From Enterococcus phage IME-EFm1, in sequence record KJ010489.1: a stretch of 42,597 bases of DNA, one strand, 5' to 3'. Each line of letters starts with the position of its first letter. Within the stretch, counting starts at the first letter, position 1. Shown in pieces: positions 8,611 to 38,058 of the stretch. The translations under genes and the position numbers were made by a program. The notes under the pieces are model-generated. The model ran no database searches. It had not been told where the DNA came from and saw only the letters and a list, made by a program, of their open reading frames with translations.

Positions 8611-8641
8611 ACCTAGTCTTAGTTGACTAGGTTTTTATTTA
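8611..8641 (+). terminator. Rho-independent terminator (AAACCTAGTC-ttagtt-GACTAGGTTTTTATTT)
   Basis: 10-bp stem plus a T-run, immediately after the major tail gene. Confidence 0.8.
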
Positions 8642-8706
8642 CACACTTGAGGGATTATATGATATAATGAAGTAGTAAAGATAAATAAAACATTGGAGGA
8701 ACTAAA

Positions 8707-9054: not shown

Positions 9055-9265
9055 AGCAATGGATAAGATGTACACTGACCTTCTATCCAGTGAGTCTGGA
9101 ACATGGTCTCTATCAGAAATTAACAACGCAGATTATAATTTACTAATGGAACTATTTACAAAAGACAATAAACCTAAAAAAGAAAAACTGCAAGACCCAG
9201 TAGATTTCTTTGGTACATTTATGAGTCCACAAGATATAGCAAAAGTAAAAGGTGAGACACTTTAG
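8707..9265 (+). CDS. Tail assembly chaperone frameshift fusion (gpGT-like), predicted +1 shift at AAA-AGG (9007-9012)
   Basis: The downstream ORF (open from 8951 to 9265) has no own start or RBS. It lies in the +1 frame relative to the gpG-like ORF and overlaps its 3' end. Confidence 0.5.
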
Positions 9266-9288
9266 CGCACGGCTAGAGTGTCTATTTT
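9253..9288 (+). terminator. Hairpin (GAGACACT...AGTGTCTC) then T-rich, upstream of the tape-measure promoter
   Basis: Inverted repeat followed by tattttatg and the promoter TGtTATAAT at 9289-9297. Confidence 0.4.
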
Positions 9289-9331
9289 ATGTTATAATAG
9301 ATTAAGAAAGCAAGCAAAAGGAGTGAAATGC

Positions 9332-12300: not shown

Positions 12301-13644
12301 AAAGGTACTAACTTCTTTGGTAACATGTGGGACAGTGTGAAAAATGTTGCTGGTAATGTAGGAAACACACTGAAAAACGTAGTAGGTGATGTGTGGGACT
12401 TCATTTCAGACCCTGGAGCATTAGCTAGAAAAGTACTTGGTGGCTTAGATGTATTAGGTGGATTGACAAAATATCCATTAGAAGTAGGTAAAGGTATTCT
12501 ATCTAAAGCAACAAGCGCCCTGACTGAAAAGATTACTGGGTTGTTCTCATCTGGTAACTTAGATACATCTATAGGAACAAACGGCGTATATAAATATTTA
12601 GCAGATGTAGCTAAATCTGTAATGAAGAAATTCCCAGGCTTTGTGGCAACTAGTGGGTATAGACCAGGCGACCCATATTCACATGGTAAACGTAACGCAA
12701 TTGATATTGCATTACCAGGTGTCACAGGAGGTTCACCACGCTACACAGAAGCCGCAAACTATGCTTTTGACAAATTCGCTTCCAAGATTGGTTACGTTAT
12801 CACAAATGGTAAAGTTCGTGACCGTTCAGGACAATCAGGTACAGGTATTCATAACGATTGGAGACCATGGCCAGATGGAGACCATTATGATCACGTGCAT
12901 TTAAACGGTGTGAAAGACCCACAAAACACTCAAATTTCAGGTGATAGCGTGGGAGGCAGTGGCGTAGAAAGATGGCGTAATGTAGCAATCAGAGCATTGA
13001 AAATGACTGGTCAATACAGTACTGCAAACTTAAATGCATTACTAAATCAAATGCGTACAGAGTCAAATGGTAATCCTAATGCAATTAACAACTGGGATAT
13101 TAACGCTAAAAATGGAACACCTTCTAAAGGGTTGCTCCAAGTGATTGACCCAACCTTCAGACAGTATGCAATGCCTGGATTCAACAGTAATATCTATGAC
13201 CCACTAAGTAATATTCTAGCATCTATAAAGTATGCCCTAGCCACATATGGCTCACTAACCAACGCTTATCGTGGAGTTGGTTACGAATACGGTGGAAGGG
13301 TCACAAAAGAACACATTGCAAGAGTTGGAGAAGGCAACAAAGAAGAGGTTATAATTCCATTAACAGGCACTGGCTTAAAACGTTCAAGAGCTATGCAACT
13401 ATTAGCATATGCTAATGAAAAACTTGGTAAAAACAAGACTACACCTACATCATTAAGTGGTAGTAATTCTAATCAAGACTTGACCATCTTGATTAATTTG
13501 ATGCAACAACAAAATGAACTCTTAATGGCGTTGCTTGATAAGTCACCTACGATTGAACTTGATGGGAATAAGGTAAGTAAAGAAATTACAAAGTATCAAG
13601 AATCAGCAACACGTAATCGAAATAGACAAATGGGATTAATATAA
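9332..13644 (+). CDS. Tail tape measure protein (TP901-type core; LAS-family Zn-peptidase and lytic transglycosylase domains). The reading frame is broken near 10319-10322.
   Basis: N-terminal coiled-coil ORF 9332-10360, then frame -1 open from 10312 to 13644. The core motif is LGFGGDANMANNAIVQLSQSFSNGKVDAQTWNSM. The H-x6-D...HVH motif spans ~12640-12900. The SLT-like RTESNGNPNA...GLLQV motif spans ~13030-13260. Confidence 0.75.
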
Positions 13645-13645
13645 G

Positions 13646-13677
13646 AAAAAAAAAGGGGGATAAACCCCCTTTTTTAT
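13646..13677 (+). terminator. Rho-independent terminator (A9-GGGGG-ataaa-CCCCC-T6)
   Basis: Perfect GC stem flanked by an A-run and a T-run (bidirectional-capable). Followed by the promoter TGtTATAAT at 13677-13685. Confidence 0.8.
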
Positions 13678-13713
13678 GTTATAATAGAAATATAAATAAT
13701 TAGGAGTGATTAC

Positions 13714-16700: not shown

Positions 16701-16848
16701 TGGCGTTATCAATAATGAATTGAATGTGGTAGGTAATCAGTGGGAAAGTTTCATCTTGCCTGTTGGTAAAACAGTGATCCAACCTGTGCTATCAACATGG
16801 GCTAATAACCCTGACGTGGTTTGTGTAGTTCGTGACTCGTGGAATTAA
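13714..16848 (+). CDS. Distal tail protein (Dit) with large C-terminal/inserted extensions (1044 aa)
   Basis: Position directly after the tape measure gene. The N-terminal ~130 aa (…IQIDGFMIKDNSG…FDMFPNRYFNAIY…LTFDV) resembles siphovirus Dit, and the remainder looks like carbohydrate-binding extensions. Confidence 0.65.
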   Translation: MEYAFLKNFSFDGKETSHLFQIAKVTIPFLSKQNELLQVGNSNGSTFLNTRRTTNTIQIDGFMIKDNSGMNIYDTKDELVRIINTNEPKQLIFDMFPNRYFNAIYSGTQEYDATDSKYTPLTLTFDVPDGLAHNINPSSYTNVYATNKNLVLDSEYNHIGKYLKPWVQKLDEKFNNSNVVQGDFTNGVPLNFESDKNSDERWLNWSQATTIHSNELKVGDEVNFSVYAQVVSIDEENNKDYAGQVILEEWDTVKGAILKRHVVDIPKKVTTEFIEYGSVVKIENEKTNAINLQYGFRGSNLIKWSKPMVSLLPPIGETVTAPTVGATAYSNSIDFGNYDYSGNPNLMANINADSFSQGSGALSVVDDGDEVVITLDPNHKLEIFKAKSQPALVVGKTYTMSVEIMLEDDFTGDPSNISLRYIKMPSWLTVLYTPYTLTNTKGVWQKLTVTAKMTTAIDNAESWFIMLQNKDANNSLSGKLRLRHAKLEEGSTATPYQPNLLDAPYYFSKLALGENIADPKKVFPIKTSLYNIYQGRNTENYQVNQTYTITMKATKPVTQQVGVYLLGGAMSVGNMQPVEGLTDVWKLTFKVTQAHIDGGVTNLLDLYQLPQSTIGAFKIDWLKIEKGDTRTPNIPYYKYEGIAPAPSNNPKDYHWGYSPSYINAVEYIPSDAGYSDIIEVYNNGTAETYPQFTFTMNGENGLVGLLHEDGSILQFGNPENVDGKDTTKSLELGVNQSFWGNTLNPEIAVNTGFKSVWNPTPPNEVRGSWDMTTNVNSVTPHYAGVDDIGVWHGPTMMMDIKPPYNNDRNNQVEARMAFMFDNDVKYRRGRYEFSVFDEHGNPIMTTILSDANAVSNTIQFELWYKGSKLGEVSLNKSRFSGREYEIVMLRRGKKLQWNFIKVHTTKRAKYEGTTYAQVIADTVESFNWTLEENDSTKWMRVGVWAQRYSNKPVAIQVIRHIQVRWLNTSYYQDIRNYFQDGDIVEIDVASRSLFVNGVINNELNVVGNQWESFILPVGKTVIQPVLSTWANNPDVVCVVRDSWN

Positions 16849-16851
16849 AAG

Positions 16852-16894
16852 AATATTAGGGGGTGTACAACCCTCTAATATTGTGTTATAATAG
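16852..16894 (+). promoter_or_regulatory. Hairpin (AATATTAGGGGG...CCCTCTAATATT) followed by an extended -10 promoter (TGtTATAAT)
   Basis: 12-bp stem with one G-U pair, then gtgTTATAAT at 16885-16893 upstream of the Tal gene. Confidence 0.45.
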
Positions 16895-18351: not shown

Positions 18352-20166
18352 ATGGCAGTAATTAAATCAGAATACCTACTTTCAAATTATGACCCAGAAG
18401 AGGTTGGAATGAAGGGTGAAAAGGGTGATGATGGGAAAACCAGTTACGTACACATTGCCTATTCTAATAGCTCAGATGGTGGCGTAGATTTTAGTACAAC
18501 TGATGCAACCAACAGAGCATATACTGGTTACTATACAGATTTTGAAATGATAGATTCAACAGACCCTAGTAAATATGAGTGGCAACGCACAAAAGGAGAC
18601 TCTGGTAAGGATGGTGTTGCAGGTAAAGATGGTGTTGGTTTAAAATCAACCACTATCACATACGCTAGCCATACTAATGCAAGTACACCACCTTCTACAG
18701 GGTGGAAAGCGGAAGTCCCAACTGTTCCAGCAGGTCAATACCTATGGACTAAAACAGTCTGGACTTACACAGACACATCAAGTGAAACTGGTTACTCAGT
18801 TGCTAGAATTGGACAAGATGGCGCAAAAGGAAATGAGGGTATAGCTGGAAAAGATGGTGTAGGCATTAAAACCACATTGATTGAATATGCAGTCAATACT
18901 AGTGGTACAGTCAGACCTACAAGCGGCTGGTCTACTACAATACCAGTTACTCCAGAAGGTCAGTACCTATGGACACGTACCACATGGACGTATACAGACA
19001 ATACGACTGAACAAGGTTATTCAGTAGCTAGACAAGGTAACAACGGACAAAACGGAACAAACGGAGCTGACGGTGATGATGGTGTAGGAATTTCTACTAC
19101 AATAATTGAGTATAATAAGTCAACTAACTCAACAACACCACCCTCTACTGGATGGACTAGTACTATCCCTTCTATAAGCGGAGGTCAATACCTATGGACA
19201 CGTGTCACATTGAATTATACTAATGGTCAAAAAGCTGAGTCCTACACAGTAGCTAGACAAGGTGAAGATGGGGCAGATGGACAACTATTCACTGGTGAAA
19301 CAGAGCCAACAGACTTTAATGAAGGTGATATTTGGTATAAAGTGGTCTCTGGTAAAGTAACTGGCGTTTATGAAGCTAAAGGTGGAGCATGGGCGGAAAT
19401 ACCTTTTGAAAGTTCTGTAATCGCTGAAACCATTATTGGTAAAACCATCACAGGTGGGAAAATCAACGGATCCACCATCAATGGTTCTGAATTTAATAAC
19501 GCCTTCAATAATGTTGTTGCAGGCGTTAATGTTGTGAGTGATGGTAAAACATCTATTTCAAACGGTGCTTTATCAGAAGTAGCATCTTACTATCTAGTTA
19601 ACACAGCAGGCGAACGCTTATATTTATTCGCAGACAATGAAGCTTACTTGACCAGAGGCTCTCTGGAAGTTAGGCAAAAACTGTACAATGAAGAAGGTAC
19701 TAAAACGAGTGAGAGTAGTGGGCAGCTTTCTGGTGGATTACTACAATTGAACTTAAGTGATAGCACTGGTACTTATAATGGCGTTTTAGATGCTAAGTTA
19801 TTAGAGTCCATGAGTGGTATTAAGCAACGGATTATAACAATCCCAAATACAAAAAACTACGCTAACGGTCGTATTGAGTATAGACGTTTTGGACAAATAG
19901 TGACAGCTGCTATTAAGTTTGACAGATTAACCGCAAACGGATGGGTCACATTATCAAACATTCCTAACGGGTATAGACCATATAGTTATCTTGATTCCTC
20001 AACCTATCTAACTTCAACGGGTAATCGTGGCTCATTTGTTTCATTATATACTGATCCTTCGTTCAACTTTATTTATATTCCATCAGTACCTGGAGGGTCA
20101 ACAAGTACTGAGAGCTATCAAGGATCAGTAACTTATTTTACTAATCAAGCTTGGGGTTTAGCATAA
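18352..20166 (+). CDS. Receptor-binding protein / tail fibre with collagen-like Gly-X-Y stretches and a triplicated ~75-aa module
   Basis: 604 aa. Three repeats of GxxGxxGxDGVG(I/L)K(S/T)T.I.Y....T(P)PSTGW...P...GQYLWTRT.WTYTD...GYSVARQG.DG. Position after Tal. Confidence 0.6.
   Translation: MAVIKSEYLLSNYDPEEVGMKGEKGDDGKTSYVHIAYSNSSDGGVDFSTTDATNRAYTGYYTDFEMIDSTDPSKYEWQRTKGDSGKDGVAGKDGVGLKSTTITYASHTNASTPPSTGWKAEVPTVPAGQYLWTKTVWTYTDTSSETGYSVARIGQDGAKGNEGIAGKDGVGIKTTLIEYAVNTSGTVRPTSGWSTTIPVTPEGQYLWTRTTWTYTDNTTEQGYSVARQGNNGQNGTNGADGDDGVGISTTIIEYNKSTNSTTPPSTGWTSTIPSISGGQYLWTRVTLNYTNGQKAESYTVARQGEDGADGQLFTGETEPTDFNEGDIWYKVVSGKVTGVYEAKGGAWAEIPFESSVIAETIIGKTITGGKINGSTINGSEFNNAFNNVVAGVNVVSDGKTSISNGALSEVASYYLVNTAGERLYLFADNEAYLTRGSLEVRQKLYNEEGTKTSESSGQLSGGLLQLNLSDSTGTYNGVLDAKLLESMSGIKQRIITIPNTKNYANGRIEYRRFGQIVTAAIKFDRLTANGWVTLSNIPNGYRPYSYLDSSTYLTSTGNRGSFVSLYTDPSFNFIYIPSVPGGSTSTESYQGSVTYFTNQAWGLA
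18590..19290 (+). repeat. Three tandem ~230-nt coding repeats (collagen-like module) inside the receptor-binding protein gene
   Basis: Repeated peptide unit seen three times in the translation (aa ~80-310). Confidence 0.55.
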
Positions 20167-20184: not shown

Positions 20185-20430
20185 ATGATTGAAATTTATG
20201 AAACTTTAGACAATATGAATGAAGAAGGTAAATATTATAATGTTTATATTGTACCAGAAAGCTTGCCAGTTAGTTCTCCATTCACAAGATTAAAGCCAGC
20301 CTCTTCACTAATTAATCCAAGATTTGATTGGTTAAAAGGAGAATGGGTTAGTGACGAAGTTAGCGTTCTTAATAAGCGTATTACAGACTTAGAAAAAAGA
20401 ATTAACGAACTAGAAGAACTCTCTAAATGA
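20185..20430 (+). CDS. Hypothetical protein (81 aa) with a C-terminal coiled coil
   Basis: RBS AAAGGAGAG. Located between the receptor-binding gene and the lysis module. Confidence 0.45.
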   Translation: MIEIYETLDNMNEEGKYYNVYIVPESLPVSSPFTRLKPASSLINPRFDWLKGEWVSDEVSVLNKRITDLEKRINELEELSK

Positions 20431-20452
20431 GAGTTCTTTATTTGCTTTTAAA
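20412..20452 (+). terminator. Hairpin terminator (AGAACTCTC-taaat-GAGAGTTCT then TTATTTGCTTTT)
   Basis: 9-bp perfect stem overlapping the stop codon, followed by a T-rich tract. Confidence 0.5.
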
Positions 20453-20475
20453 CGCATAACTACCCAACTATCAAA

Positions 20476-20502
20476 ATTTAAACGCCTTAGAATGCTCGTG
20501 AG
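20476..20502 (+). repeat. Copy 1 of a 22-nt direct repeat (CTTAGAATGCTCGTGAGAGACA) upstream of the lysis-cassette promoter
   Basis: Identical core recurs at 22275-22296. It lies ~28 nt upstream of the -10 TGtTATAAT at 20526-20534. Confidence 0.6.
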
Positions 20503-20585
20503 AGACACACCATTTCGCTTATATAGATGTTATAATGATTACAGACCTAGGAAACGAGGTGATAAATGAATAGGAGTGTTTTGCT

Positions 20586-20864
20586 ATGAACTTAAACGAT
20601 AAGGAGTTTGTGTCATTGAAAGAACAGTTAGCAAGAATTGAGGTAAAGTTGGATGATATACCTGAGATTAAAGCTGACTTAAAAGAGTATGGTAGTCGCT
20701 TAGAACGTCAATCTGAAAAAGCAGATAAGGCATACAGCATGTCCATGCAGAATAGAGAGGCATTAGCTGACCTCAAAAACAGCTATACATGGCTAACACG
20801 TACAACTGTTGGCGCAGTTATTGGAGCATTAGTTAGTATTGGTTTATCCTTATTTATGAAATAG
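20586..20864 (+). CDS. XhlA-like lysis-associated membrane protein (putative holin-like / haemolysin XhlA family)
   Basis: 92 aa. N-terminal coiled coil with a single C-terminal TM segment (VGAVIGALVSIGLSLF). First gene of the lysis cassette. Confidence 0.55.
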   Translation: MNLNDKEFVSLKEQLARIEVKLDDIPEIKADLKEYGSRLERQSEKADKAYSMSMQNREALADLKNSYTWLTRTTVGAVIGALVSIGLSLFMK

Positions 20865-20876
20865 AGGTGATGTAGA

Positions 20877-21158
20877 ATGAATAAAATAAACTGGAAAGTT
20901 CGCTTTAGCAAAGACAACCTAACATTTATCTTGCGTTTTATTGGCGCATTAGCAGTACCTATCCTAGCGTACTTTGGTTTGAAATTTGAGGATATTACAT
21001 CCTTTGATACATTATTAGATGTATTAGTTAGAGCAGTGAGCAATCCTTATGTATTAGGCTTAACTGTGATTAATGCATTAAACATGATTCCAGACCCAAC
21101 AACTAAAGGTATTACAGATAGTGAGAAAGCATTGAACTATACAGAACCAAAGAAATAA
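20877..21158 (+). CDS. Holin (phi-LC3 / LL-H type)
   Basis: 93 aa. MNKINWKVRFSKDNLTFILRFIGALAVPILAYFGL... is typical of this holin family. Directly upstream of the endolysin. Confidence 0.75.
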   Translation: MNKINWKVRFSKDNLTFILRFIGALAVPILAYFGLKFEDITSFDTLLDVLVRAVSNPYVLGLTVINALNMIPDPTTKGITDSEKALNYTEPKK

Positions 21159-21174
21159 GAAAGAGAGTGATAAC

Positions 21175-22200
21175 ATGGTAGAAATCATCAATAAAACAGT
21201 CACACGTGGTGTGGCAGGACGTAGACCAGGTGCAGTGAAGGGTGTAGTATTCCACAATACATGGGGCAACTCAACAGCTAAACAAGAAGCCAATCGTTTA
21301 GCAGCAATGAACAACAATCAGTTAGCTGCTGGATTTGCTCATTATTACATTGATAAGAATACAATCTGGCGTACTGAGGATACTTACAATGCAGCTTGGC
21401 ATACAGCTAACTCTGATGGTAATACAAACTATATTGGCTATGAAGTGTGTGGTAACGATCAAACACCATTGAAAGACTTCTTGCAAGCTGAAGAAAATAC
21501 CTTTTGGCAAATTGCGCAAGATTTGAAATATTATGGTTTACCAGTTAATCGTAATACAGTACGTTTACATCATGAGTTTTCAGCCACACAATGTCCTAAA
21601 CGTTCGTTAATCATTCATACTGGTTTCAACTCAACACAGGCTCAGCCAGCTAATGTAACTAACACAATGAAAGATTATGTGATTAAAAACGTTCTTAAGT
21701 ATTACAATAACCCTAGTTTGAAACCAGATGGTAAAGCTCCATCTACAGGTGGACAAACACCTCCAAGTGGTGCTAACGTAACACCTTCAACACCTAGCCA
21801 ACATGATAAGGCAGTATCTGCAAGCCCAGCAAAACATCAAGGTAATGCTTGGGGTAAACTTGACTACTTTAATGGTCATGGTAAAGATCAGATTCGTGTG
21901 GCTGGTTGGTTAGTTCCTGATAAACCACAAGGTCCTATTGGACGATATGCATATGTTATCTTCATGCAACATGGAACAAACAAAGAACTGACACGTGTTC
22001 AGTCTGCTGGTATTAAACGCCCAGATGTTAAGAAAGCATATGGCTATCAAGGTGGGCAAGAGCTTGGTTTTGACGTAACAGTCAATAAGAACCAGTTCAA
22101 AGGTAAAAAAGTAGACGTGATTTTGCGTAGAGCAAATAAATCTAATGGTGAAGGCGCAGTGAATGACGTGAGAATTGATAGTATCTATTTGAGTCTATAA
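21175..22200 (+). CDS. Endolysin: N-acetylmuramoyl-L-alanine amidase (Amidase_2/PGRP) with a C-terminal cell-wall-binding domain
   Basis: 341 aa. The N-terminal block ...VVFHNTWGN...AHYYIDKN...AWH...YIGYEVCG has a PGRP-like zinc-amidase pattern. C-terminal ~140 aa form a binding module after a Pro/Thr/Ser linker. Confidence 0.8.
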   Translation: MVEIINKTVTRGVAGRRPGAVKGVVFHNTWGNSTAKQEANRLAAMNNNQLAAGFAHYYIDKNTIWRTEDTYNAAWHTANSDGNTNYIGYEVCGNDQTPLKDFLQAEENTFWQIAQDLKYYGLPVNRNTVRLHHEFSATQCPKRSLIIHTGFNSTQAQPANVTNTMKDYVIKNVLKYYNNPSLKPDGKAPSTGGQTPPSGANVTPSTPSQHDKAVSASPAKHQGNAWGKLDYFNGHGKDQIRVAGWLVPDKPQGPIGRYAYVIFMQHGTNKELTRVQSAGIKRPDVKKAYGYQGGQELGFDVTVNKNQFKGKKVDVILRRANKSNGEGAVNDVRIDSIYLSL

Positions 22201-22202
22201 TA

Positions 22203-22235
22203 AAAAACCACTGGTTAATCCAGTGGTTTTCTTTT
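22203..22235. terminator. Bidirectional rho-independent terminator at the convergence of the late (+) and early (-) arms
   Basis: AAAAAACCACTGG-ttaat-CCAGTGGTTTTCTTTT: perfect 9-bp stem flanked by an A-run and a T-run. Confidence 0.8.
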
Positions 22236-22267
22236 GTTGTTAAATTGGTAATCACCTTGTTTAATTT

Positions 22268-22296
22268 ATTTAAAGCGCTTAGAATGCTCGTGAGAG
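22268..22296 (+). repeat. Copy 2 of the 22-nt direct repeat (CTTAGAATGCTCGTGAGAGACA)
   Basis: Identical 22-nt core to 20479-20500, in the convergent intergenic zone. Confidence 0.6.
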
Positions 22297-22346
22297 ACAT
22301 GCTTTTTGATAGAAATAGGTGTATTCTTCACCACTACTCTTCCTCC

Positions 22347-22568
22347 CTATTTAAATTCTTCCCATTTATTTGGTGCAAATCCCATACTCACAAACTCACC
22401 ATCTTTAAACACTACTGGTAGCGTTCTTAGGTTCATAGTAAGTAATTCATTTAATCCTTCTAGGTTTTCATCTACATTAACCTCAGTGAAGGTGTGCCCT
22501 TTGCCTTTAAACCAGTTCTTGCTCATTTTGCAAGGCATGCAGTTGTTTTTAGTATAAATTTTAATCAT
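22347..22568 (-). CDS. nrdH: NrdH-like glutaredoxin (CxxC redoxin)
   Basis: 73 aa. MIKIYTKNNCMPCKMSKNWF... has a CMPC active site and the typical NrdH length. No RNR genes are seen in the window. Confidence 0.6.
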   Translation of the reverse strand: MIKIYTKNNCMPCKMSKNWFKGKGHTFTEVNVDENLEGLNELLTMNLRTLPVVFKDGEFVSMGFAPNKWEEFK

Positions 22569-22608
22569 TTTATTTTCCTCCTATTACTTTATGAATTAAG
22601 TATAACAC

Positions 22609-22637
22609 CTCAGTTAAGAGGTGTCAAGTGTTTAATC
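22609..22637 (-). promoter_or_regulatory. Sigma-A-like promoter (TTGACA-17-TATACT) with a palindromic spacer (CACCTC...GAGGTG) and a conserved leader
   Basis: On the minus strand: TTGACACCTCTTAACTGAGGTGTTATACT, followed by the leader ...ATAAAGTAATAGGAGG and the nrdH ATG. Confidence 0.55.
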
Positions 22638-24923
22638 AATGTAGTTTCTGACACTAGGAGTCGTGTATCCAAGTTTAGTTCTTTTGGCATGTGCTTGCTC
22701 AATCCTTTCTTTCCAATTTGTACCAAACCACATTACTAGTAAATCTTCCACCTGGTTTATATAGTATTCTTTATCAATGTCAGCAAGAGTTATCCATCCT
22801 TCACCAATTGCCTCATTATCAATGGCGTAATACTCAGGTGCGTTAGCTAAGCCTTTAGTATAAGAATCGTCACCAACAATAGTTGTGCCTTCTTCTTCAA
22901 TTACAGCTCCTCGTTTCACCTTGAATATTTCAACAGCTTTATCAGGGTCTTTTATTGCAAAGGTACGATTTACTTTTTGTGCTTTAAGTTCATTACCTTT
23001 ACTATCACGCACCACAGTATCATCAAAAGTCCAGCCAGTTTTCGTAATCATTTGGAACTGACGTAGTTCGTCACATTCATTGATAAACTCTTTATAGTCT
23101 TTACCAGCAACTACATAGTTAATGAAGGCATTTGACACAATTGCTTTAGATACTTTCAAACCATTTGTTAAACCAATAGCACCTTTAAACTTCACCTTAC
23201 CATCTGATGTAACTGCCAAGTAATTATTTACATTGGCTTGATATATTTCTCTAAACGGATCATCGTCTAAGGTGTACCCTGTCCGTTTCATCCAATCATT
23301 TGCAATCTCATCAATCGCTTTCTCATCTTCTTCACTAAATGGAATATAGTAGTGTGCGTCTGTGTTTGATTGAATAATAGTAGCATGGTTTTCAATCTTT
23401 TCTAGTAAATCCCACATTGCCATCTGTCCAGTAATACATACTAATAACCGCATACGTGGATCATACAGTTTATTAAATTCAGCGCCCATGGCACCATATT
23501 TCGTGTTTAAAGGTAGTTTATAGCCATTAATTAGCAACTTGGTTGGAATCTGAACGCCTTTAATTTCAGTAAATTCTTTATTAGAATACTTAGCTTCCAT
23601 CCGTTCATCTAATAACATTTGGTAGATATGTCGTTTATCTTCTGGAATGTTTCTTGATAAGTAGTCAAACAGCACCATTGTGTTAGGGTACAATGATCCA
23701 ACATCACGTGCGTGGAAGTTACCTACATGAATAAATGACTCCTTAGCACCATGTATGCCACCTACTCCTAAAACCTCTGTTACGTCTCTACGTGGTACAT
23801 CTAATGAAATACTTGCATGCCCTTTTTCGTTCGCTTCAAACTCATTTGTCATAAATGCCTGACGAATGGTCTCTGACTCAATTTTAAATCCTTCTGGTAA
23901 TTCATACTTATCTAGTTCATCACCTCTATCAGGTGTTTTCTCAGCCCCTAATAGTTCAGCTGTTAGGTTTGCGTTTGTCATTGATAGAGCCATTTTATCT
24001 AAATCAAAGTATAGAGCAATTGCAGCTTTAGCTACTAACATACCTATGTTTTGTTCAAAGCGTTTCTCAGTAGCTAACACATCATTTTTACAATACAACT
24101 CATTCAACACTTGCTCTTCTTCAGTTAGTTCTCTATCTAAATCAAAATCTACCTCAGTTTCTTTGATATTAATACCCATGAAAGCACTATGCTCTTTCAA
24201 ACTAAAACCTCTATTGTCTTGATACAAATCCATTCCAAAAAGTGGTGTTTTCTTAGTATCAAACATCTTGTACACTAACCCTCTATCATCTGATTCAATG
24301 ATTGCTTTAGATATGTGATACGGGTTCTTACCTTGCATGTGGGCACGCATTACATTTGAGTCATATGAGTGTGAGTTATAACCTACAAACAACGAATCTC
24401 TATTCGCTAAATAGAACTTGCGTAACGCATCTAAATCATTATGGATAACGGTCCACTCTTTTGTAAAGTAATCTCTGAAAACAAATAAATTGTCTTTTTT
24501 AAATACTTCAATATCATAAATGTAAATAGTTTGATTCGTTAATGCTCCGTTTGGTTTCTCAGGTAAGTTATCAACAACCCCTCCGTTTTGATTAATTGTT
24601 ACGTTGGGAAAACCATTGTTGTATCTTAGAGTGATATTTAACTCCTGACCTACTTGAATATCTTCCCATGTTTTCCAATCTTGTTTACGAAACTTCATGA
24701 TATAAAAAGTAGCATCACGCCCATCAGTTGTGCTACGCACTTTGATCTCTTTCATTTCTTTACCTTTAGCACTTAAACGTTCCTCAGCTTTAATCACTAC
24801 AACTTGGTGAACCCCTTCAATCATAGGGTCAAAACTTTTTCCATTACCTGCTAATGCAGAAAATATTTCTAACAGTTTAGATGCTAGTTTTTCAGCACCT
24901 TGAAATTCTGCAATGTTTTTCAT
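22632..24923 (-). CDS. DNA polymerase, family B (3'-5' exonuclease plus polymerase domains)
   Basis: 763 aa. Exo I IYIYDIEVF, Exo II YNSHSYDSNVM, pol motif C SNTDAHY and KxY GKVKFKGA. Promoter TTGTGT-17-TATACT upstream. Confidence 0.85.
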   Translation of the reverse strand: MKNIAEFQGAEKLASKLLEIFSALAGNGKSFDPMIEGVHQVVVIKAEERLSAKGKEMKEIKVRSTTDGRDATFYIMKFRKQDWKTWEDIQVGQELNITLRYNNGFPNVTINQNGGVVDNLPEKPNGALTNQTIYIYDIEVFKKDNLFVFRDYFTKEWTVIHNDLDALRKFYLANRDSLFVGYNSHSYDSNVMRAHMQGKNPYHISKAIIESDDRGLVYKMFDTKKTPLFGMDLYQDNRGFSLKEHSAFMGINIKETEVDFDLDRELTEEEQVLNELYCKNDVLATEKRFEQNIGMLVAKAAIALYFDLDKMALSMTNANLTAELLGAEKTPDRGDELDKYELPEGFKIESETIRQAFMTNEFEANEKGHASISLDVPRRDVTEVLGVGGIHGAKESFIHVGNFHARDVGSLYPNTMVLFDYLSRNIPEDKRHIYQMLLDERMEAKYSNKEFTEIKGVQIPTKLLINGYKLPLNTKYGAMGAEFNKLYDPRMRLLVCITGQMAMWDLLEKIENHATIIQSNTDAHYYIPFSEEDEKAIDEIANDWMKRTGYTLDDDPFREIYQANVNNYLAVTSDGKVKFKGAIGLTNGLKVSKAIVSNAFINYVVAGKDYKEFINECDELRQFQMITKTGWTFDDTVVRDSKGNELKAQKVNRTFAIKDPDKAVEIFKVKRGAVIEEEGTTIVGDDSYTKGLANAPEYYAIDNEAIGEGWITLADIDKEYYINQVEDLLVMWFGTNWKERIEQAHAKRTKLGYTTPSVRNYID

Positions 24924-25108: not shown

Positions 25109-25507
25109 CTAGTAGATTACCTGCATCCTTAATGCTTTTGTATTCTGTATTGTTTGTAATACAGAATACAGGCTTTTTATTTGTTCTGTCACACGTGCTA
25201 TTCTAGTTCCGTGGTTCATATTCTGTTTATTTGTAACCCACTCAAGATTATCCAATTTATTATTAGCTTTATCCTCATCTATATGATTGACTTGAGCATT
25301 ATTAAACGGTCTTTTGTAAAATGATTCTAATATTAATACGTGAGCAAATTTCTTAGTTTTATAATATGTTAAACTAATTCTTACATATCCTTTTTTATTA
25401 ATACATCCTTTTAATATGTTTCCTGTAATTTTATTTCTAATTCTACCAAGGTTTGAACACTCGTAGTAGTCTTCATACTGTTTTACATCTACCCAATATT
25501 CAATCAT
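25109..25507 (-). CDS. HNH homing endonuclease (NUMOD4 / HNH_3 type)
   Basis: 132 aa. YECSNLGRIRN..., GYVRISL, HVLILESF..., NHIDEDKANNKLDNLEWVTNKQN. Confidence 0.75.
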   Translation of the reverse strand: MIEYWVDVKQYEDYYECSNLGRIRNKITGNILKGCINKKGYVRISLTYYKTKKFAHVLILESFYKRPFNNAQVNHIDEDKANNKLDNLEWVTNKQNMNHGTRIARVTEQIKSLYSVLQTIQNTKALRMQVIY

Positions 25508-25725: not shown

Positions 25726-26277
25726 TTATGCATCTATAATTACTCCATCATCATGCCACTTATCATATGTGTGTTTTTTTAATGCTATATAATAAGTTAT
25801 ACCATCCACAGCGCTTATTGACTTGCTCCTATCATTTTTACCACGTTTACTCTTACTTGCCTTAGACTCTTTGCTAATAAAGTTCTTATTTAGAATCTTT
25901 TGAGCGTATTCAATTTGTGTTTTTAACAATAGTGAGTATCCTTTTGATTCCAACATGTCAGATAATTCAGAAAGTACAGCTATGAAATAACCATGAGCAT
26001 AACTCTCATAACGTGACACTCTCACATAAGTTGTCTTGCTATTTACCTGATTTAACAACCATATTGACCCAACATTCTTCTGACCGCAAAATATTTGATA
26101 TCCATACCCTGCATTATTGTATTTAGTCATTTTCATATCGTGACGGTTATTTATCATTTCTTTAGTAAATTTATTATCTCTATATAGTGTAAAATTTTCT
26201 AACTCTAATGCATGGTATAGTTTAAATGGAAATTGTTCATTAGGTTTGTGAACTTCTCTTATGGGTAGCTTCATCAT
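25726..26277 (-). CDS. Hypothetical protein (183 aa) with a Lys-rich C-terminal region
   Basis: RBS GGAGGAAG. No recognisable family. Confidence 0.5.
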   Translation of the reverse strand: MMKLPIREVHKPNEQFPFKLYHALELENFTLYRDNKFTKEMINNRHDMKMTKYNNAGYGYQIFCGQKNVGSIWLLNQVNSKTTYVRVSRYESYAHGYFIAVLSELSDMLESKGYSLLLKTQIEYAQKILNKNFISKESKASKSKRGKNDRSKSISAVDGITYYIALKKHTYDKWHDDGVIIDA

Positions 26278-26291
26278 TTTAATCTTCCTCC

Positions 26292-26624
26292 TTATTTGAA
26301 ATCATATTTATTCATCAATGCGCCAATAATATTGAATAGTGAAATTATTGTAGGGATACCTGTCCAACAGAAGACTAGTTTAATAAGTCCTTTTACTGGT
26401 TTTCCAACGTAGAAATCATGAGCCCCAATTCCTCCTAAGAATAGTGCTAGCAATAAATAAACAGTCAAACTTGGTTTATTAGAATTCTCTTTCATGCTTT
26501 TAAGTTGTGTTAATTGTTCCTTTAAAATTTCGTTTTGTAATTGATCGTTAGTCATTTCTTTTTCCTCCTCTTGTGGTGTGTTCATTTTCTTCAATGTTTC
26601 TAATACTGTATTTTGCTTAGTCAT
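26292..26624 (-). CDS. TM2-domain membrane protein with an N-terminal coiled coil
   Basis: LLLALFLGGIGAHDFYVGKPVKGLIKLVFCWTGIP matches the TM2-domain signature (GxHxFYxG) and has two TM helices. Confidence 0.55.
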   Translation of the reverse strand: MTKQNTVLETLKKMNTPQEEEKEMTNDQLQNEILKEQLTQLKSMKENSNKPSLTVYLLLALFLGGIGAHDFYVGKPVKGLIKLVFCWTGIPTIISLFNIIGALMNKYDFK

Positions 26625-26658
26625 TTTAATCTTCCTCTCTTTATCTTATGAGTTAAGT

Positions 26659-26871
26659 TTACCATGCCATGTTCACTTTGTCAATTGTTTTCACTGCTAA
26701 TTTTAAATCTTTTTCTAGGAAACCTTCTGTGGAACCGCTGTATAACTTAACCATGTACTCCCAGCCGTCAACTGGTTCATACAGCTTATATAACAGCACT
26801 CCTTTATCACCCTTATTGCCTAGTCCGTTTAGGTTATCTCGTTTTAACTCTACCACGTTTCCAAGATTCAT
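26659..26871 (-). CDS. Hypothetical protein (70 aa)
   Basis: RBS AAAGAGGAGG. Confidence 0.45.
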   Translation of the reverse strand: MNLGNVVELKRDNLNGLGNKGDKGVLLYKLYEPVDGWEYMVKLYSGSTEGFLEKDLKLAVKTIDKVNMAW

Positions 26872-26904
26872 TTTAATTTCCTCCTCTTTATCTTACAAGT
26901 TAAT

Positions 26905-26950
26905 TTTAACATGGATAAAAAAAGAAGTCAACCATTTAGGTCAACTTCTT
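26905..26950 (-). terminator. Terminator-like hairpin (AAGAAGTCAACC...GGTCAACTTCTT) flanked by an A-run and a T-rich tract
   Basis: Imperfect 12-bp stem. The forward-strand A7 run gives a U-run on the minus transcript, after the 230-aa gene. Confidence 0.45.
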
Positions 26951-28902: not shown

Positions 28903-29130
28903 CTATAACTCCTCCTTCAATAGCTCTAAATCTTCATCACTCAATTTATCAATCAGTTCAATATCTTCTTCACGTACTTCCTCAAAGCGTGCTGCGAACT
29001 CTCCTGATTCAACTAAGACAAGAATGTTTCCGAACTTGTCTACGTGTTGTACAGTGCCCTCATCACCTTGTGCTGCGTGCATTCCATAATTGTTTGTGAA
29101 TCTAACTAAATCTCCATATTGATATTTCAT
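28903..29130 (-). CDS. Small acidic protein (75 aa)
   Basis: RBS AAAGGAGGAAA. The C-terminal 25 aa are strongly acidic (…EEDIELIDKLSDEDLELLKEEL). Confidence 0.45.
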   Translation of the reverse strand: MKYQYGDLVRFTNNYGMHAAQGDEGTVQHVDKFGNILVLVESGEFAARFEEVREEDIELIDKLSDEDLELLKEEL

Positions 29131-29357
29131 TTTATTTCCTCCTTTATTTATCTTACTTGTTTAGTTTATCATCTGTAGTTTCGTTTGTCAACTCTTTTTC
29201 TTTTTTATGTCTAATATAGCCTACAAGTGATAGTATTCCAATTAAGGATATACCTCCAATTACGAATATTAAGTACAGTACCAGGCTGGCTAATTTTAAT
29301 CCTAAATAAATTTCAAGCATTTTTGTGTTCCTCCTTTTTCTTTATGTTTTAATTGTA

Positions 29358-30120
29358 TCATCTTACTAACCAGTTGTCAATATCTCTTTGAGTTATTTTT
29401 CCTTTTGATTTTTTAATTAATCCATCAAACGTGCGATAGGTTTCTGATTGGTGTAGCTCTACATCTATTGTATCAGACTTACCAAATTTATCAACAAAAA
29501 TTTCTCTGTCTGTTGTACTTAAATGTCTGTAGCTGCCATTGGCGAATATATTGAACCCGGTATGTGCCTTAGTTGATTCATAGAACTCAATTACTTTTGG
29601 ATCGTAATTAGCCTCTAAAAGAATAATATCAAGCTTTAAGTTATTTGTCAATAGATAAGTTTCATAATCTACCAAAGTGCTTAAATCAGTTGCAAATATT
29701 AAATTCTGCTTAGGTGTCTCCATGATTAGCCCATGGGTTTCCGCATAATCTTCTCCTTCTCCGTGGTAGTTTTGAATGGTTGTAATTTTAGTATCTCCAA
29801 TTTGAAATTGAAAGTTATCTGAAAATACAATATCTAGTGGTGGTAAATTTCTTTTCTTTAGATTTTCATTCACATCATTATTTCCAAGAATTTTGATATT
29901 TGGAAAATTTTCTTTAACCTTCTTGTATCCTGTCCAATTAATGTGGTCAGATTCAAGAATGACGGTGAGTGTAAAGCAAGAATTGAACATCATATAAATA
30001 AGGTTCAATACTCTTAAAGCTTTTACCAGCATCAACCATCATAGACCAATCACCCCCCGTATTCGAAATTACGGCACAATTACCCTTAGAGCCGCTATAA
30101 TGTATTTTAAAATCCAGCAT
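29358..30120 (-). pseudogene. Metallo-beta-lactamase-fold hydrolase gene with a frame disruption near 29941-29961
   Basis: The N-terminal 57 codons (MLDFKIHYSGSKGNCAVISNTGGDW...FLLYTHRHS*) run from ATG 30120 in one frame. The rest (…SDHINWTG…ETHGLIMET…) runs in frame +1. The HxHxDH motif is split by an apparent ~7-nt insertion. Confidence 0.5.
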
Positions 30121-30169: not shown

Positions 30170-30440
30170 TTATGTGTCAAGTGATTTATCTAAATATTTA
30201 AACACGTAACCTCCTGTTTGTCTTCGTTTTCCTGTTAGTACACTAGATATGTGACCGTGGTTTAATCCTAATTGTATAGCACACTCCTTACCACTATTAT
30301 ATTCATTATATTCACCATTTGCAATATCAATTGCAATTATTGGCTTACTGTTAGATTTACTAAACCGTTCTAATCTAGTTCCATGACTGTTTTGTTCTTT
30401 CATTGTACCCTTTAATATCTTTCCAAATTTCTTCAATCAT
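30170..30440 (-). pseudogene. Degraded second homing-endonuclease gene: NUMOD4-like start (MIEEIWKDIKGY..., 21 codons, ATGA-coupled), then a frame change and a C-terminal IENR1/NUMOD-like DNA-binding ORF (88 aa)
   Basis: Frame X gives MIEEIWKDIKGYNERTKQSWN*. The other frame gives …PIIAIDIANGEYNEYNSGKECAIQLGLNHGHISSVLTGKRRQTGGYVFKY. The nuclease core is missing. Confidence 0.45.
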
Positions 30441-31725: not shown

Positions 31726-32466
31726 TTAAACGTCCGCCATTCTTCGCAGTTCACGCTTTCTAACTGATTCATATGTTCTTAATACCTCCTCTTCTGATAA
31801 TGGTGGATTACAGCCAATCTGGTTAACGTACAGACTCCACACTCTTACTTCCTCGTGTTCAAGTCCAGTTGCAAATAATTTACCAATAATTGAGGTTAAA
31901 AATATATTCCTTGAACCTTCACCACTACCTGCAATTATATCACCTAGTAAATTAGCTGTAAACTTTCTCTCTCTTTTTTTATTTTTCTTGGTAATCGTTT
32001 TATCTGTAAACATTTCTAACCATTTCTCAGGTAGTTCTGCCAGTTCTACATCACGTACTACTTCATAATAGTTACCATCAATTTGACTAGGTGGTGCCAC
32101 TACGTAACGCCCATGAGTCTGAAAATCAACACCTTCAAGCTGAGAATGATTTTGAAGAAATTGCGTTTCATTGTATTTCTCATCTAATTTGAAATAATAA
32201 TGATAGCCATTACTAGGTGTTTTTACCACTTTGGTTTTTGGTAAAGTGATGTCATACATTTCCAAGAACTCTTTTAAGTTACCAAGACCATCCACTCCGT
32301 TATGATTGTCAATATCAATTACTGCAATACCGCTTGCTGAACCGGTGAGCGTGCCAACGTTGCCACCTTCTTCAATCCATTTTTTGATCAACTCTTCTGA
32401 TTCTCCATCAAACGCTCCAGCCACTAGTGGTGCTTTACCATTTTTCTTTAGTCTTAATTGTTTCAT
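31726..32466 (-). CDS. PrimPol-type DNA primase (bifunctional primase/polymerase N-terminal domain plus PriCT_1 C-terminal domain)
   Basis: AVIDIDNHNGVDG, TPSNGYHYYF and GVDFQTHGRYVVAPPS match the PrimPol domain. C-terminal NIFLTSIIGKLF...EEVLRTYESV is PriCT-like. Start chosen at MKQLRLKK with RBS AAGAGGAGG. Confidence 0.7.
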   Translation of the reverse strand: MKQLRLKKNGKAPLVAGAFDGESEELIKKWIEEGGNVGTLTGSASGIAVIDIDNHNGVDGLGNLKEFLEMYDITLPKTKVVKTPSNGYHYYFKLDEKYNETQFLQNHSQLEGVDFQTHGRYVVAPPSQIDGNYYEVVRDVELAELPEKWLEMFTDKTITKKNKKRERKFTANLLGDIIAGSGEGSRNIFLTSIIGKLFATGLEHEEVRVWSLYVNQIGCNPPLSEEEVLRTYESVRKRELRRMADV

Positions 32467-32495
32467 TGTCATTCCTCCTCTTAACTTATAAATAA

Positions 32496-32524
32496 AGTAT
32501 AACACCCCAATTAAGGGGTGTCAA
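32496..32524 (-). promoter_or_regulatory. Sigma-A-like promoter (TTGACA-17-TATACT) with a palindromic spacer (CACCCC...GGGGTG) plus a conserved leader
   Basis: On the minus strand: TTGACACCCCTTAATTGGGGTGTTATACT, then TTATTTATAAGTTAAGAGGAGG and the primase start. Confidence 0.55.
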
Positions 32525-32689
32525 CTAGTATCTACAATTTATTTAAATATTTTAGATACGTGTTTACCCACAGTCCTATACGTGGCTTCTCTGTGAAGAT
32601 GAATGACATAATCACTTGCTTTTGCTTTTTAAATTTAACGTCAGGTAGCGTGCCTGTTGGTTTCTTGAAGTATCCTTTATATTTCTTTT

Positions 32690-37994: not shown

Positions 37995-38012
37995 TGTTAA
38001 TTCCTCCTCTTA

Positions 38013-38052: not shown

Positions 38053-38058
38053 ACTGTT

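Follow-up and report, generated by a model that had tools for sequence, protein, structure and literature searches.

A putative regulatory boundary cassette is present in two copies around the lysis genes of Enterococcus phage IME-EFm1 and its relatives

Under the modular theory of Susskind and Botstein, phages exchange otherwise unrelated modules by homologous recombination at short conserved stretches on the module borders, and such linker or boundary sequences have been described in lambdoid phages. Another arrangement is that of the par (Fst) type I toxin-antitoxin locus of the Enterococcus plasmid pAD1, which has the direct repeats DRa and DRb and a shared bidirectional terminator. The PeSL (promoter-early stem-loop) cassettes of T4-type phages are found in many copies per genome in hyperplastic regions, each have a strong early promoter of the sigma-70 type and border non-essential ORFans, and recombination between flanking cassettes gives rise to circular DNA, the mini-circles (Arbiol et al., 2010, PMC2839356; Comeau et al., 2014, PMC4122927). 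For the Ltr late-operon activators (RinA, ArpU, LtrC) of temperate phages of Gram-positive bacteria, three 7-nt direct repeats have been described right after the activator gene and upstream of terS (Quiles-Puchalt et al., 2013, PMC3753634).

We analyzed the whole 42,597-nucleotide stretch of Enterococcus phage IME-EFm1 (KJ010489.1), referred to below as the window. An exact search showed that the 22-mer CTTAGAATGCTCGTGAGAGACA occurs at exactly two sites, both on the plus strand, 20486-20507 (copy 1) and 22278-22299 (copy 2). No third site with up to three mismatches was found in the whole window, and 100 dinucleotide-preserving shuffles gave 0 matches, so none is expected by chance. The identical 22-nt direct repeat pair reported in an earlier note on this DNA is real; the positions reported with it, 20479-20500 and 22275-22296, were off by 7 and 3 nt. 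The similar flanks that it described were also found (ATTTAAA and CGC at copy 1, ATTTAAA and GCG at copy 2), and the genes for XhlA (20586-20864, PF10779), holin (20877-21158, PF04531) and the Amidase_2 endolysin (21175-22200, PF01510), all on the plus strand, lie between the copies together with their terminator, as had been said, and with the predicted lysis promoter.

Comparison of the copies indicated that the 22-mer is the best-conserved part of an apparently ancient composite intergenic cassette. In a repeat search the two copies matched over 55 nt (20476-20530 and 22268-22322) with 75% identity, and an nhmmer profile built from 94 unique copies of the element covered about 73 nt of each copy in the window. 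By this profile, copy 1 (T-run, spacer, box A, gap and core) is at 20437-20509 (E 7.8e-17) and copy 2 at 22230-22300 (E 4.4e-15), both on the plus strand. The unit opens with the terminator hairpin and a T-run, followed by box A (TAATCACC), by a gap of 19-21 nt whose sequence is free and by box B, which begins with CTTAGAATnnTC and runs on for about 10 nt. Box A, which was defined as a block in the 94 unique copies, is TAACTACC in copy 1 (20457-20464, plus strand) in comparison with the consensus TAATCACC, and it has the consensus sequence in copy 2 (22249-22256, plus strand). The 22-mer core, or box B, of copy 1 is made up of CTTAGAATGCTC and GTGAGAGACA. The conserved unit is a non-coding cassette of 73-115 nt, and of 102 copies from relatives, 100 have a hairpin with a dG of -7 or lower that ends 40-50 nt ahead of the core. 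The two cassettes point in the same orientation, one at each end of the lysis genes.

Like a PeSL, this element is a composite non-coding cassette of about 100 bp in which a stem-loop terminator is combined with promoter-associated sequence. It lies between genes and adjoins the most variable ones, the junctions of indels and replacements between relatives coincide with it, direct copies flank gene sets, and the copies exchange sequence. Unlike PeSLs, the cassettes number two per genome (three in phage 9184) and not many, their conserved core is no recognisable promoter, and only copy 1 precedes a promoter, which is of late type. They also flank essential lysis genes, so recombination between the two cassettes would be lethal. 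With lambdoid linkers they share the position of conserved stretches at the borders of otherwise unrelated modules; however, those linkers belong to temperate phages and lie between functional modules, while here an oriented, terminator-tied pair surrounds a single cassette of genes. As at Ltr sites, a late or lysis promoter with a weak core would depend on upstream sequence, which here is a prediction. In contrast to those sites, the element is bipartite and non-repetitive, is located upstream of xhlA in a virulent-type phage, and has a second, promoter-less copy; no Ltr-family gene was recognised among 30 small proteins of the phage.

We give a probability of about one half to the reading that this is a PeSL-like regulatory boundary cassette, which combines control of the lysis promoter, paired sites for one factor and joints for the recombination of modules. 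Copy 1 would act from upstream to control the promoter dedicated to the lysis genes, an extended -10 with no -35, and copy 2 would be the promoter-less twin of copy 1 at the place where late and early transcription converge. Both would be kept as DNA sites for one sequence-specific factor, host- or phage-encoded, which may serve as a gate or an insulator for transcription immediately past the two late terminators. Such gating would make the lysis genes reliant on their own promoter and would keep late read-through out of the early operon. Homologous or microhomology-mediated recombination joins modules at the cassettes because these are islands of conserved sequence between fast-changing modules.

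At copy 1, the intrinsic terminator hairpin of the tail-gene operon (20413-20439, plus strand; 11-bp stem and T-run) forms the upstream part of the cassette. The sequence of this hairpin differs among relatives, and homology begins at 20414-20467. Downstream of the core, sequence and conservation define a CACyATTTC block and the extended -10 of a dedicated lysis promoter (20508-20536, plus strand), with TG at 20528-20529, TATAAT at 20531-20536 and no -35. From this extended -10 we infer promoter activity; every other plus-strand promoter candidate of the phage is TGnTATAAT. The end of copy 1 is 20 nt from the TG and 23 nt from TATAAT, not about 28 nt from the -10 as had been claimed. Both genera have exactly 20 nt between core and TG, and no indel distinguishes them from the T-run to the -10. 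From the core end to the xhlA ATG, identity within clades is 98%. The element is placed at a fixed distance from the -10, and it is probably a control site for the lysis promoter. The proposed class II activator placement held only approximately: for a predicted start of transcription 7 nt after the -10, the 22-mer spans about -57 to -36, and its most conserved 12 nt centre on about -51 and not on -41.5. The leader (20556-20589, plus strand) contains the Shine-Dalgarno sequence GAGGTGAT and an upstream ORF of 8 codons, whose TGA stop overlaps the xhlA ATG; this ORF is not kept as an ORF in the Efquatrovirus clade.

The core could itself be a promoter, with TAGAAT (core positions 3-8) as its -10, standing in tandem upstream of the lysis promoter at copy 1 and in antisense at copy 2, from where it would drive late transcription into the early operon. 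Variation in the hexamer is confined to its third and least constrained position (TAGAAT, TATAAT, TAAAAT), a perfect TATAAT is present in phiSHEF2 and 9181, and TTGTTT or TTACTT usually lies 17-18 nt upstream at copy 2. However, the -35 scores were at or below background (mostly 1-2/6 at copy 1 and 3/6 at copy 2, with a background mode of 2-3), and there is no TG extension, unlike in the other plus-strand candidates of the phage. A -10 would also leave unexplained why the flanking CT and the downstream nnTC vary as little as the hexamer, and the core was absent from the output of a consensus promoter scan. We regard a promoter in the core as very unlikely.

Copy 2 is found in a different setting. 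A bidirectional intrinsic terminator (22204-22230, plus strand; 11-bp stem, A-run before and T-run after) forms the upstream part of its cassette and is common to the lysis operon and the convergent early operon. The second copy had been described as lying just past this terminator in the convergent zone; the placement is right, and the distance is 48 nt. It comes before the glutaredoxin/NrdH-like gene (22347-22568, minus strand) and has no promoter, and the stop codon of the last early gene falls within it. In relatives, the minus strand of the copy-2 core supplies the final codons of a deoxynucleoside kinase gene together with its stop (CLSRAF*), by the annotation and translation of Aramis and SSBHU. 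The dNK domain ends at residue 206 of 231, and the kinase tail encoded by copy 2 is outside the fold. The stop codons within copy 2 are those of the kinase gene in the window clade and of nrdH in Efquatrovirus. Between copy 2 and nrdH there is a variable cargo slot, which in the window holds, by sequence comparison, a remnant of the deleted kinase gene (22300-22346, minus strand). The remnant consists of the ribosome-binding site and start joined to the last ~20 codons, the two segments of homology to kinase-bearing relatives overlap at 22328-22336, and the same remnant is found in KEN21. The hairpin with the long unit, the minus-strand stop codon in copy 2 and the loss of copy 2 in some relatives had been missed by the earlier note.

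Next, the distribution of the element in relatives was examined. By profile search, each complete genome carries exactly two significant copies, as counted in the window and in complete Aramis. Of the 25 informative loci of the window clade (E. faecium phages), 19 have both copies at the two positions seen here, as do all 28 of 28 E. faecalis Efquatrovirus-type loci, and copy 1 was present in 27 of 27 window-clade loci. Both copies stand at these positions in two genera, and the refuting observation named in the earlier note, absence or a different place in relatives, was clearly not made. Copy 2 was missing in five window-clade genomes (EF36P1, 268, DELF1, L049 and L050) and is therefore not essential. 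Phages without copy 2 keep a perfect copy 1, and the copy-1 core showed 0-1 mismatches in nearly all window-clade relatives, with 22/22 matching in the distant 268 and DELF1.

The conservation of the element was compared with that of its surroundings. Between the genera, neighbouring proteins share only 22-57% identity, while the copy-1 region aligns without a gap across about 117 nt at 65-68% identity and identity in the copy-2 core reaches 82%; CTTAGAAT hardly varies in either genus. Within clades, identity over the 12 nt that open the core was 0.90-1.00 in both copies, in comparison with 0.75-0.81 at third codon positions of xhlA, and the spacer evolves at about the synonymous rate. The copies also exchange sequence ectopically. 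Of the 28 copy-1 spacers in Efquatrovirus, 13 belong to the copy-2 type, and L085 has two almost identical copies, hairpin included. Copy identity within genomes was equal to that between genomes (0.675/0.677 and 0.767/0.766).

These data bear on whether copy 2 has a function at all. Copy 1 alone may be functional, as an upstream part of the lysis promoter, and copy 2 may be a relic of cassette placement or duplication, left for example when a circular lysis module inserted in Campbell fashion at an element already present, or by a local duplication. Such a relic could be kept in part by its overlap with the early-gene 3' end, by the need for a terminator and by occasional conversion from copy 1. 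The loss of copy 2 without replacement in the five genomes named above fits this explanation, as do the kinase and nrdH stop codons inside it, the documented conversion, the more variable copy-2 core in the window clade (0.87, versus 1.00 for copy 1), and the weak similarity traces of copy 2 that reach up to the -10 position, with TG retained. On the other hand, a relic would hardly be kept in every Efquatrovirus locus or at the cross-genus identity of its core, and the non-coding first 12 nt of the copy-2 core are identical at 0.90-0.92 versus 0.75-0.81 at synonymous sites. Copy 2 also persists between 7-8 unrelated sequence classes on each side, the E. cecorum-type phage L137 keeps a copy-2-type element though it has no copy 1 to convert from, and the excess similarity within genomes that is expected from recurrent conversion is lacking. 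The relic explanation is accordingly judged unlikely, though stop-codon overlap and gene conversion could account for part of the conservation of copy 2.

Antisense RNA control like that of par was also considered. The 3' end of the early mRNA, as the reverse complement of copy 2, would pair with late RNA of copy 1, the shared bidirectional terminator would pair too, and the lysis genes would be held back while early transcripts are abundant. As in par, direct repeats bracket membrane-toxic genes and a bidirectional terminator under convergent transcription, so that the repeats would yield complementary RNAs. The stop codons within copy 2 make minus-strand transcription of this copy certain, and 37 transitions between the copies are G-U-compatible in this orientation versus 8 in the opposite one. 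However, copy 1 lies upstream of the predicted lysis promoter, and the lysis mRNA would therefore not contain it. There are 68 pairing-breaking transversions, the Efquatrovirus copies differ by a central CG/GC swap, and the equality of identity within and between genomes shows no compensation. Unlike in par, complementarity between the repeats is thus not maintained by compensatory evolution, the locus extends over 1.8 kb instead of 0.4 kb, and it has no dedicated promoter for a small antitoxin RNA. A perfect copy 1 is found in phages that have no copy 2, RNAalifold on the 94 unique copies gave no consensus structure for either strand, and no Rfam match reached the gathering score. Pairing of this kind is most improbable.

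Returning to the PeSL-like boundary cassette, we searched for a factor that might act on it. Pfam searches of 30 small proteins and the Aramis annotation revealed no recognisable DNA-binding regulator, sigma factor, recombinase or integrase, and the 30 small proteins gave no match to Ltr, Sigma70_r4 or ArpU. The papers searched hold no account of the element and no transcript maps for these phages. Two non-coding boxes that outlast their replaced surroundings, and that recur in 72-kb phages and a satellite-like element, nevertheless point to a trans-acting factor, and we infer protein binding and a gating or insulating role for both copies. Paired binding sites or a looping element, the roles suggested earlier, are compatible with the data. 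It is distinctly doubtful, though conceivable, that one factor binds the bipartite candidate site at both ends to form an insulated or looped domain that times lysis, as a 'lysis gate' operator shared by diverse Enterococcus mobile elements.

Other candidate roles were rejected. Box A is not an anti-Shine-Dalgarno sequence for GGTGAT of the xhlA leader, since the leader varies (GGTGGTTTAC, GGTGGTAA) while box A is constant. A small ORF that would start at the ATG within the core lacks both a ribosome-binding site and conservation: the Efquatrovirus copy 2 has the ATG followed by 2 codons and a stop, and the Efquatrovirus copy 1 has no ATG. We know of no motif among ECF/SigV, SigH, sigma-54, CcpA cre, CIRCE and SPO1 late, compared by eye, that fits the core in both clades. 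A dispersed regulator motif or general late-gene motif was rejected on the basis of only two copies per genome, and a weak recurrent match at 23529-23603 is polymerase gene coding sequence and looks like chance.

The element was also sought beyond the two clades. A scan of IMG/VR with the bipartite pattern gave mostly chance matches, and after profile filtering only the contigs L119, L129 and L137 outside the two clades had real copies. In L027, a different phage of 72 kb, a perfect core lies 18 nt upstream of TGCTATATA. The element was seen in at least three unrelated groups of Enterococcus siphophages, in 72-kb phages and in a small PICI-like element, and because of this spread the factor may be host-encoded. 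An origin of the sequence in the host or in prophages was rejected: an 18-mer of the core had 4 matches in 185,579 genomes, all in unrelated taxa (Microcoleus, Azonexus and others), where about 17 would be expected by chance in 596 Gb by our own estimate, and no plasmid matched the core.

Finally, we analyzed where homology to relatives breaks off. Of 170 breakpoints, which are not phylogenetically independent events, 21 fell at 20414-20467 and 50 at 22200-22399, and this clustering is partly a necessary consequence of a conserved block between variable blocks. On the outer side of copy 1, 14 unrelated sequence classes were found and on its inner side 2, and the cargo adjoining copy 2 is a kinase, an alpha-amylase-family enzyme (glycosidase), an HNH gene, another gene or nothing. 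The homology between L137 and Efquatrovirus stops at the core. As far as alignment to relatives can tell, the cassettes clearly mark where neighbouring gene modules get swapped, and this comparison shows their role as recombination joints. Recombination boundaries of an exchangeable lysis module had been among the earlier suggestions; the breakpoint clusters, one on the outer border of copy 1 and the other at copy 2, bear out the boundaries, but the lysis cassette is not swapped as a unit. The parts exchanged are tail-fibre genes on the left, cargo modules on the right and domains inside the endolysin.

Junctions and cargo at these places could also arise by cleavage and repair or by site-specific insertion, if the element were the target of a homing endonuclease or an unrecognised recombinase and the lysis cassette or the cargo were mobile. 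HNH/NUMOD genes do occur nearby (in the copy-2 spacer of L063, about 200 nt off in L027, and adjoining the slot in SSBHU and EF36P1), the window has at least four HNH/NUMOD endonuclease genes, and the core is long and asymmetric like an endonuclease target. This explanation is highly improbable in view of the lack of a recognised integrase or recombinase in the proteins and annotation searched, the site that stays intact in genomes with endonuclease genes, and the copy-2 junctions, which vary over ~10 nt with microhomology and have no fixed crossover point. Homing also leaves the fixed spacing to the lysis -10 unexplained.

Read as regulatory cassettes that double as recombination linkers, the two copies would be a counterpart in Gram-positive siphophages to the T4-type PeSL idea. 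Relatives of the window phage (IME-EFm5, Aramis, LG62) and the Efquatrovirus group are under development against vancomycin-resistant enterococci. If the element controls the lysis promoter, it would offer a means of adjusting lysis timing and burst size, and it would serve engineering as a defined part. As natural joints at which receptor-binding modules are exchanged on the left and accessory cargo on the right, the cassettes would be rational crossover points for building or 'training' recombinant phages. Stray copies of the element mark other junctions as well, and the third copy in phage 9184 lies exactly at the junction of an inserted ATPase and GNAT cassette.

Comparison with related phages showed that an ancient bipartite non-coding cassette, oriented and linked to a terminator, is present twice, with the identical repeats around the lysis genes as its cores, and that this cassette marks the borders between the conserved lysis block and its hypervariable neighbours. 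The 22-mer CTTAGAATGCTCGTGAGAGACA occurred exactly twice in the 42.6-kb window, at 20486-20507 and 22278-22299, both on the plus strand; no further match was found in the window with up to three mismatches allowed, and 100 shuffles gave no match. The earlier note had described this pair correctly but placed it 7 and 3 nt too low. Both copies also shared ATTTAAA three bases further upstream, and a repeat search lengthened the match between them to 55 nt (75% identical). The XhlA, holin and endolysin genes and their terminator lay between the repeats, as the note had claimed, and were preceded by a promoter and a short leader. The order between the copies was an extended -10 promoter (read from the sequence as TG at 20528-29 and TATAAT at 20531-36, plus strand), a short leader, XhlA, a class-1 holin, an Amidase_2 endolysin and a bidirectional terminator (22204-22230). 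Copy 1 came after the tail-operon terminator (20413-20439), and copy 2 lay after the lysis terminator and before a convergent glutaredoxin/NrdH-like gene and the family-B DNA polymerase gene. Siphophages of Enterococcus faecium, LG62, Aramis, IME-EFm5, SSBHU, and KEN21 among them, matched the region at 84-96% identity. The core had only four chance matches, in unrelated taxa, among 185,579 bacterial genomes, and the copy-1 element had no match in plasmids; the element is phage and not host sequence.

Lining up all copies from relatives defined a conserved unit that is far longer than 22 nt. Its parts were, in order, a terminator hairpin and a T-run resembling TTTATTTGC, then box A (TAATCACC) and, after a 19-21-nt gap that was fixed in length and free in sequence, box B. 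The first 12 nt of box B (CTTAGAATnnTC) were nearly invariant, and its last 10 nt were clade-specific (CGTGAGAGACA in the window clade, the E. faecium phages related to IME-EFm1, and CCTATGAAACA in the Efquatrovirus-type phages of E. faecalis). A stable hairpin ended 40-50 nt upstream of the core in 100 of 102 copies. Searched with a profile of 94 unique copies, the window yielded two significant matches and no more (E = 8e-17 and 4e-15), and the complete Aramis genome likewise two and no more. Since there were only two profile matches per genome, a dispersed late-promoter or regulator motif was rejected; the element belonged specifically to the two sides of the lysis gene block.

All 27 window-clade loci had copy 1, and 19 of the 25 informative ones had copy 2. 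The Efquatrovirus-type loci, which were sampled via the XhlA protein and not via the motif, all carried both copies (28/28); copy 1 preceded xhlA, and copy 2 lay past the lysin terminator, where it overlapped the stop codon of nrdH. The note had asked whether relatives have the 22-mer beside their lysis modules; the element held the same two positions in both genera, although some window-clade loci had no copy 2 and stray copies lay elsewhere. Between the genera, protein identity was 41% for XhlA, 32% for the holin, 22% for the lysin and 57% for NrdH; the copy-1 region was 65-68% identical over about 117 nt with zero gaps, and the copy-2 core was 82% identical. Within clades, spacer identity was 0.80-0.86 versus 0.75-0.81 at xhlA third positions, which is approximately the synonymous rate. 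The first 12 nt of the core reached 0.90-1.00 in both copies, and identity from the core to the xhlA ATG was 0.98; both cores, as non-coding DNA, are therefore under purifying selection. The element is ancient, and its positions are conserved.

The distance from the end of copy 1 to the TG of the extended -10 was 20 nt in both genera, and with a start site placed 7 nt past the -10 the 22-mer would span about -57 to -36. At all other plus-strand promoter candidates of this phage the hairpin was followed directly by TATGnTATAAT; only the lysis promoter had the element between hairpin and -10 (about 90 nt). At least seven hairpin and extended -10 (TATGnTATAAT) cassettes without a -35 were seen on the plus strand (~1440-1482, 3300-3349, 5250-5301, 8620-8668, 9250-9298, 13640-13685, and 16845-16892), and they look like the usual units for late promoters in this phage. 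The xhlA leader (20556-20589) contained a strong Shine-Dalgarno sequence (GAGGTGAT) together with an upstream ORF of 8 codons. The TGA stop of this ORF overlaps the ATG of xhlA (as ATGA), which hints at translational coupling. Efquatrovirus did not preserve the ORF as a reading frame, and in phage 268 ATG-TAA stood in its place.

A structured RNA was excluded, as no Rfam family matched and RNAalifold found no consensus structure on either strand of the 94 unique copies. The repeat architecture of par, the Fst locus of the Enterococcus plasmid pAD1, is strikingly like that of the lysis-flanking element. However, par-like antisense pairing between convergently transcribed repeats is very unlikely, because the predicted lysis promoter comes only after copy 1, the two copies were equally identical within and between genomes (0.675 vs 0.677, and 0.767 vs 0.766), and 68 pairing-breaking transversions exceeded 37 wobble-compatible changes among the copy-copy differences. 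Long-range pairing of box A with GGTGAT of the leader was also discarded, with no compensation seen. The core hexamer TA(G/T/A)AAT varied at the third position only, but a promoter inside the core was rejected because the best -35 was at or below background, the TG extension was absent, and the flanking CT and nnTC were as invariant as the hexamer. Ltr-type (RinA/ArpU) late control uses three 7-nt repeats beside the activator gene, upstream of terS (PMC3753634). It was excluded since the site layout differs and the activator gene was not found; a survey of 30 small proteins and of the Aramis annotation recognised only several HNH/NUMOD endonucleases, and no Ltr-type gene and no sigma factor, HTH protein or recombinase. 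Four HNH/NUMOD genes of homing-endonuclease type lie in the window, at 25109-25507, 30170-30436, 33978-34478, and 42051-42518; the ORF at 30170-30436, which matched nothing but the I-HmuI NUMOD-like domain, is perhaps a fragment.

The two invariant short boxes, the fixed gap of free sequence, the fixed -10 register and the lack of an RNA signal point to a DNA site for a sequence-specific protein. Both copies would be sites for one such protein, with copy 1 as the control region of a dedicated lysis promoter. Copy 2 would be another site where late and early transcription converge; it may act behind the terminator as an insulator or roadblock, or take part in looping. A host-encoded factor is conceivable, because the element is spread over very different Enterococcus elements. 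The observation itself is firm and reaches far back in evolution; the regulatory mechanism, where the main interest lies, is what we infer from it. For this explanation as a package, we put the probability at roughly 50%.

Copy 2 had no -10. In Aramis, SSBHU, RG1, and 9184 its minus strand formed the last codons and stop (CLSRAF*) of a deoxynucleoside kinase. The kinase domain ended at residue 206 of 231, and the homologous kinase of L027, from the 72-kb phage group of E. hirae, had a different tail, so the kinase reading frame merely extends into the element. An alpha-amylase-family gene replaced the kinase in LG62 and ended just before the core, and two other sequences (L010 and L019) had another gene in this position beside copy 2. 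The window and KEN21 had a clean internal kinase deletion, with the start joined to the last ~20 codons; the same out-of-frame remnant was present in both, in the window at 22300-22346 with 9 nt of overlap where the two parts meet (22328-22336). A larger deletion in EF36P1, with CACC of box A as microhomology, removed the copy-2 core, and phages 268 and DELF1 had no copy 2 at all. These losses showed that copy 2 is dispensable, though usually kept. According to the main rival explanation, the pair arose by an insertion or duplication of which copy 2 is a relic, kept by the stop-codon overlap and occasional conversion; we consider this unlikely.

Comparison of the window with 26 relatives gave 170 homology breakpoints in 9 kb, including 21 at the outer edge of copy 1 (20414-20467), 50 at copy 2 and the cargo junction (22200-22399), and 34 at the nrdH/polymerase border. 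Beside copy 1, 14 unrelated sequence classes were found outside versus 2 inside, and copy 2 was an island between 7 classes on the lysin side and 8 on the outer side. Breakpoints within the cassette at ~21170 and ~21784 swapped an endolysin gene segment between relatives, and thus the exchanged units were neighbouring modules and lysin domains. The repeats had been proposed as recombination boundaries of an exchangeable lysis module; breakpoints did gather at both copies, but the lysis cassette was not exchanged as a unit. The C-terminal (cell-wall-binding) part of the endolysin (21788-22207) was 80-87% identical in DNA to endolysins of 18-19-kb Enterococcus podophages (IME199, Zip, and phiEFM08-14). 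A copy-2-type spacer was present in copy 1 of 13/28 Efquatrovirus loci, and in L085 the two copies were nearly identical, hairpin included; sequence is thus exchanged between the copies. A role of the cassette as a recurrent site of recombination junctions and copy-copy exchange is well supported by these alignments.

Phage 9184 (L005) had a third copy exactly at the join of an inserted ATPase+GNAT cassette and a duplicated polymerase C-terminus. The inserted gene pair (5291-6732), for an ABC/AAA-like ATPase and a GNAT acetyltransferase, lay where the DNA polymerase gene has its 3' end; the GNAT protein was fused with the duplicated C-terminus, and the GenBank labels of the pair were 'DNA polymerase' and 'ABC transporter'. 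An HNH gene lay within the copy-2 spacer of L063. The E. cecorum-type phage L137 had different holins with an ordinary hairpin/-10 cassette upstream, and its homology to Efquatrovirus spanned the lysin and stopped at the core of a copy-2-type element, with no copy 1. A perfect 22-mer with a recognisable box A was found in a long non-coding region of L027, 18 nt upstream of TGCTATATA. The minus strand of this region (4470-4540 and 4880-4925) carried both gaaaaaattttctcattttttatt and tctgggg(g)agtg twice. These iteron-like repeats suggest that the stray element copy sits in an origin or regulatory region. EH802P2, a relative of L027, had a diverged core in the corresponding position (16/22; E 0.0014 with the profile), and 9181 had CTTATAATGCTCGTGTGTGCAA in a non-coding region at borderline significance. 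Two 12.9-kb elements (L119 and L129) with repressor, cro-like and VapE-type primase genes look like putative phage satellites, and about 70 nt resembling Efquatrovirus copy 1 lay antisense inside an early operon.

The papers found on these phages did not describe the element. Among described systems the nearest is PeSL, the promoter-early stem-loop of T4-type phages, a ~100-bp composite terminator/promoter cassette at indel junctions that recombines with its own copies (PMC2839356, PMC4122927). However, the lysis element lacked the defining strong early promoter in every copy and the many copies per genome; it is not a PeSL, but as a linker it behaves like one. Closer to the PeSL definition was a multi-copy regulatory cassette of minus-strand sense (22558-22628, 26274-26319, 26621-26666, 26868-26913, 29128-29173, 29317-29362, 32457-32525, 37986-38054, and 38335-38403), comprising a canonical early promoter (TTGACA-N17-TGnTAtACT), a leader and the ribosome-binding site of the next minus-strand gene. 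The tail-fibre-like gene (18352-20166, 604 aa) contained three 225-nt repeats at 18700-19220, 63-72% identical, which encode a repeated domain GW..IP..P.GQYLWTR..W.YT. Upstream of the small-terminase region, a 35-nt direct repeat (48-82 and 140-174, 83% identical, 92 nt apart) may be linked to packaging or the genome end.
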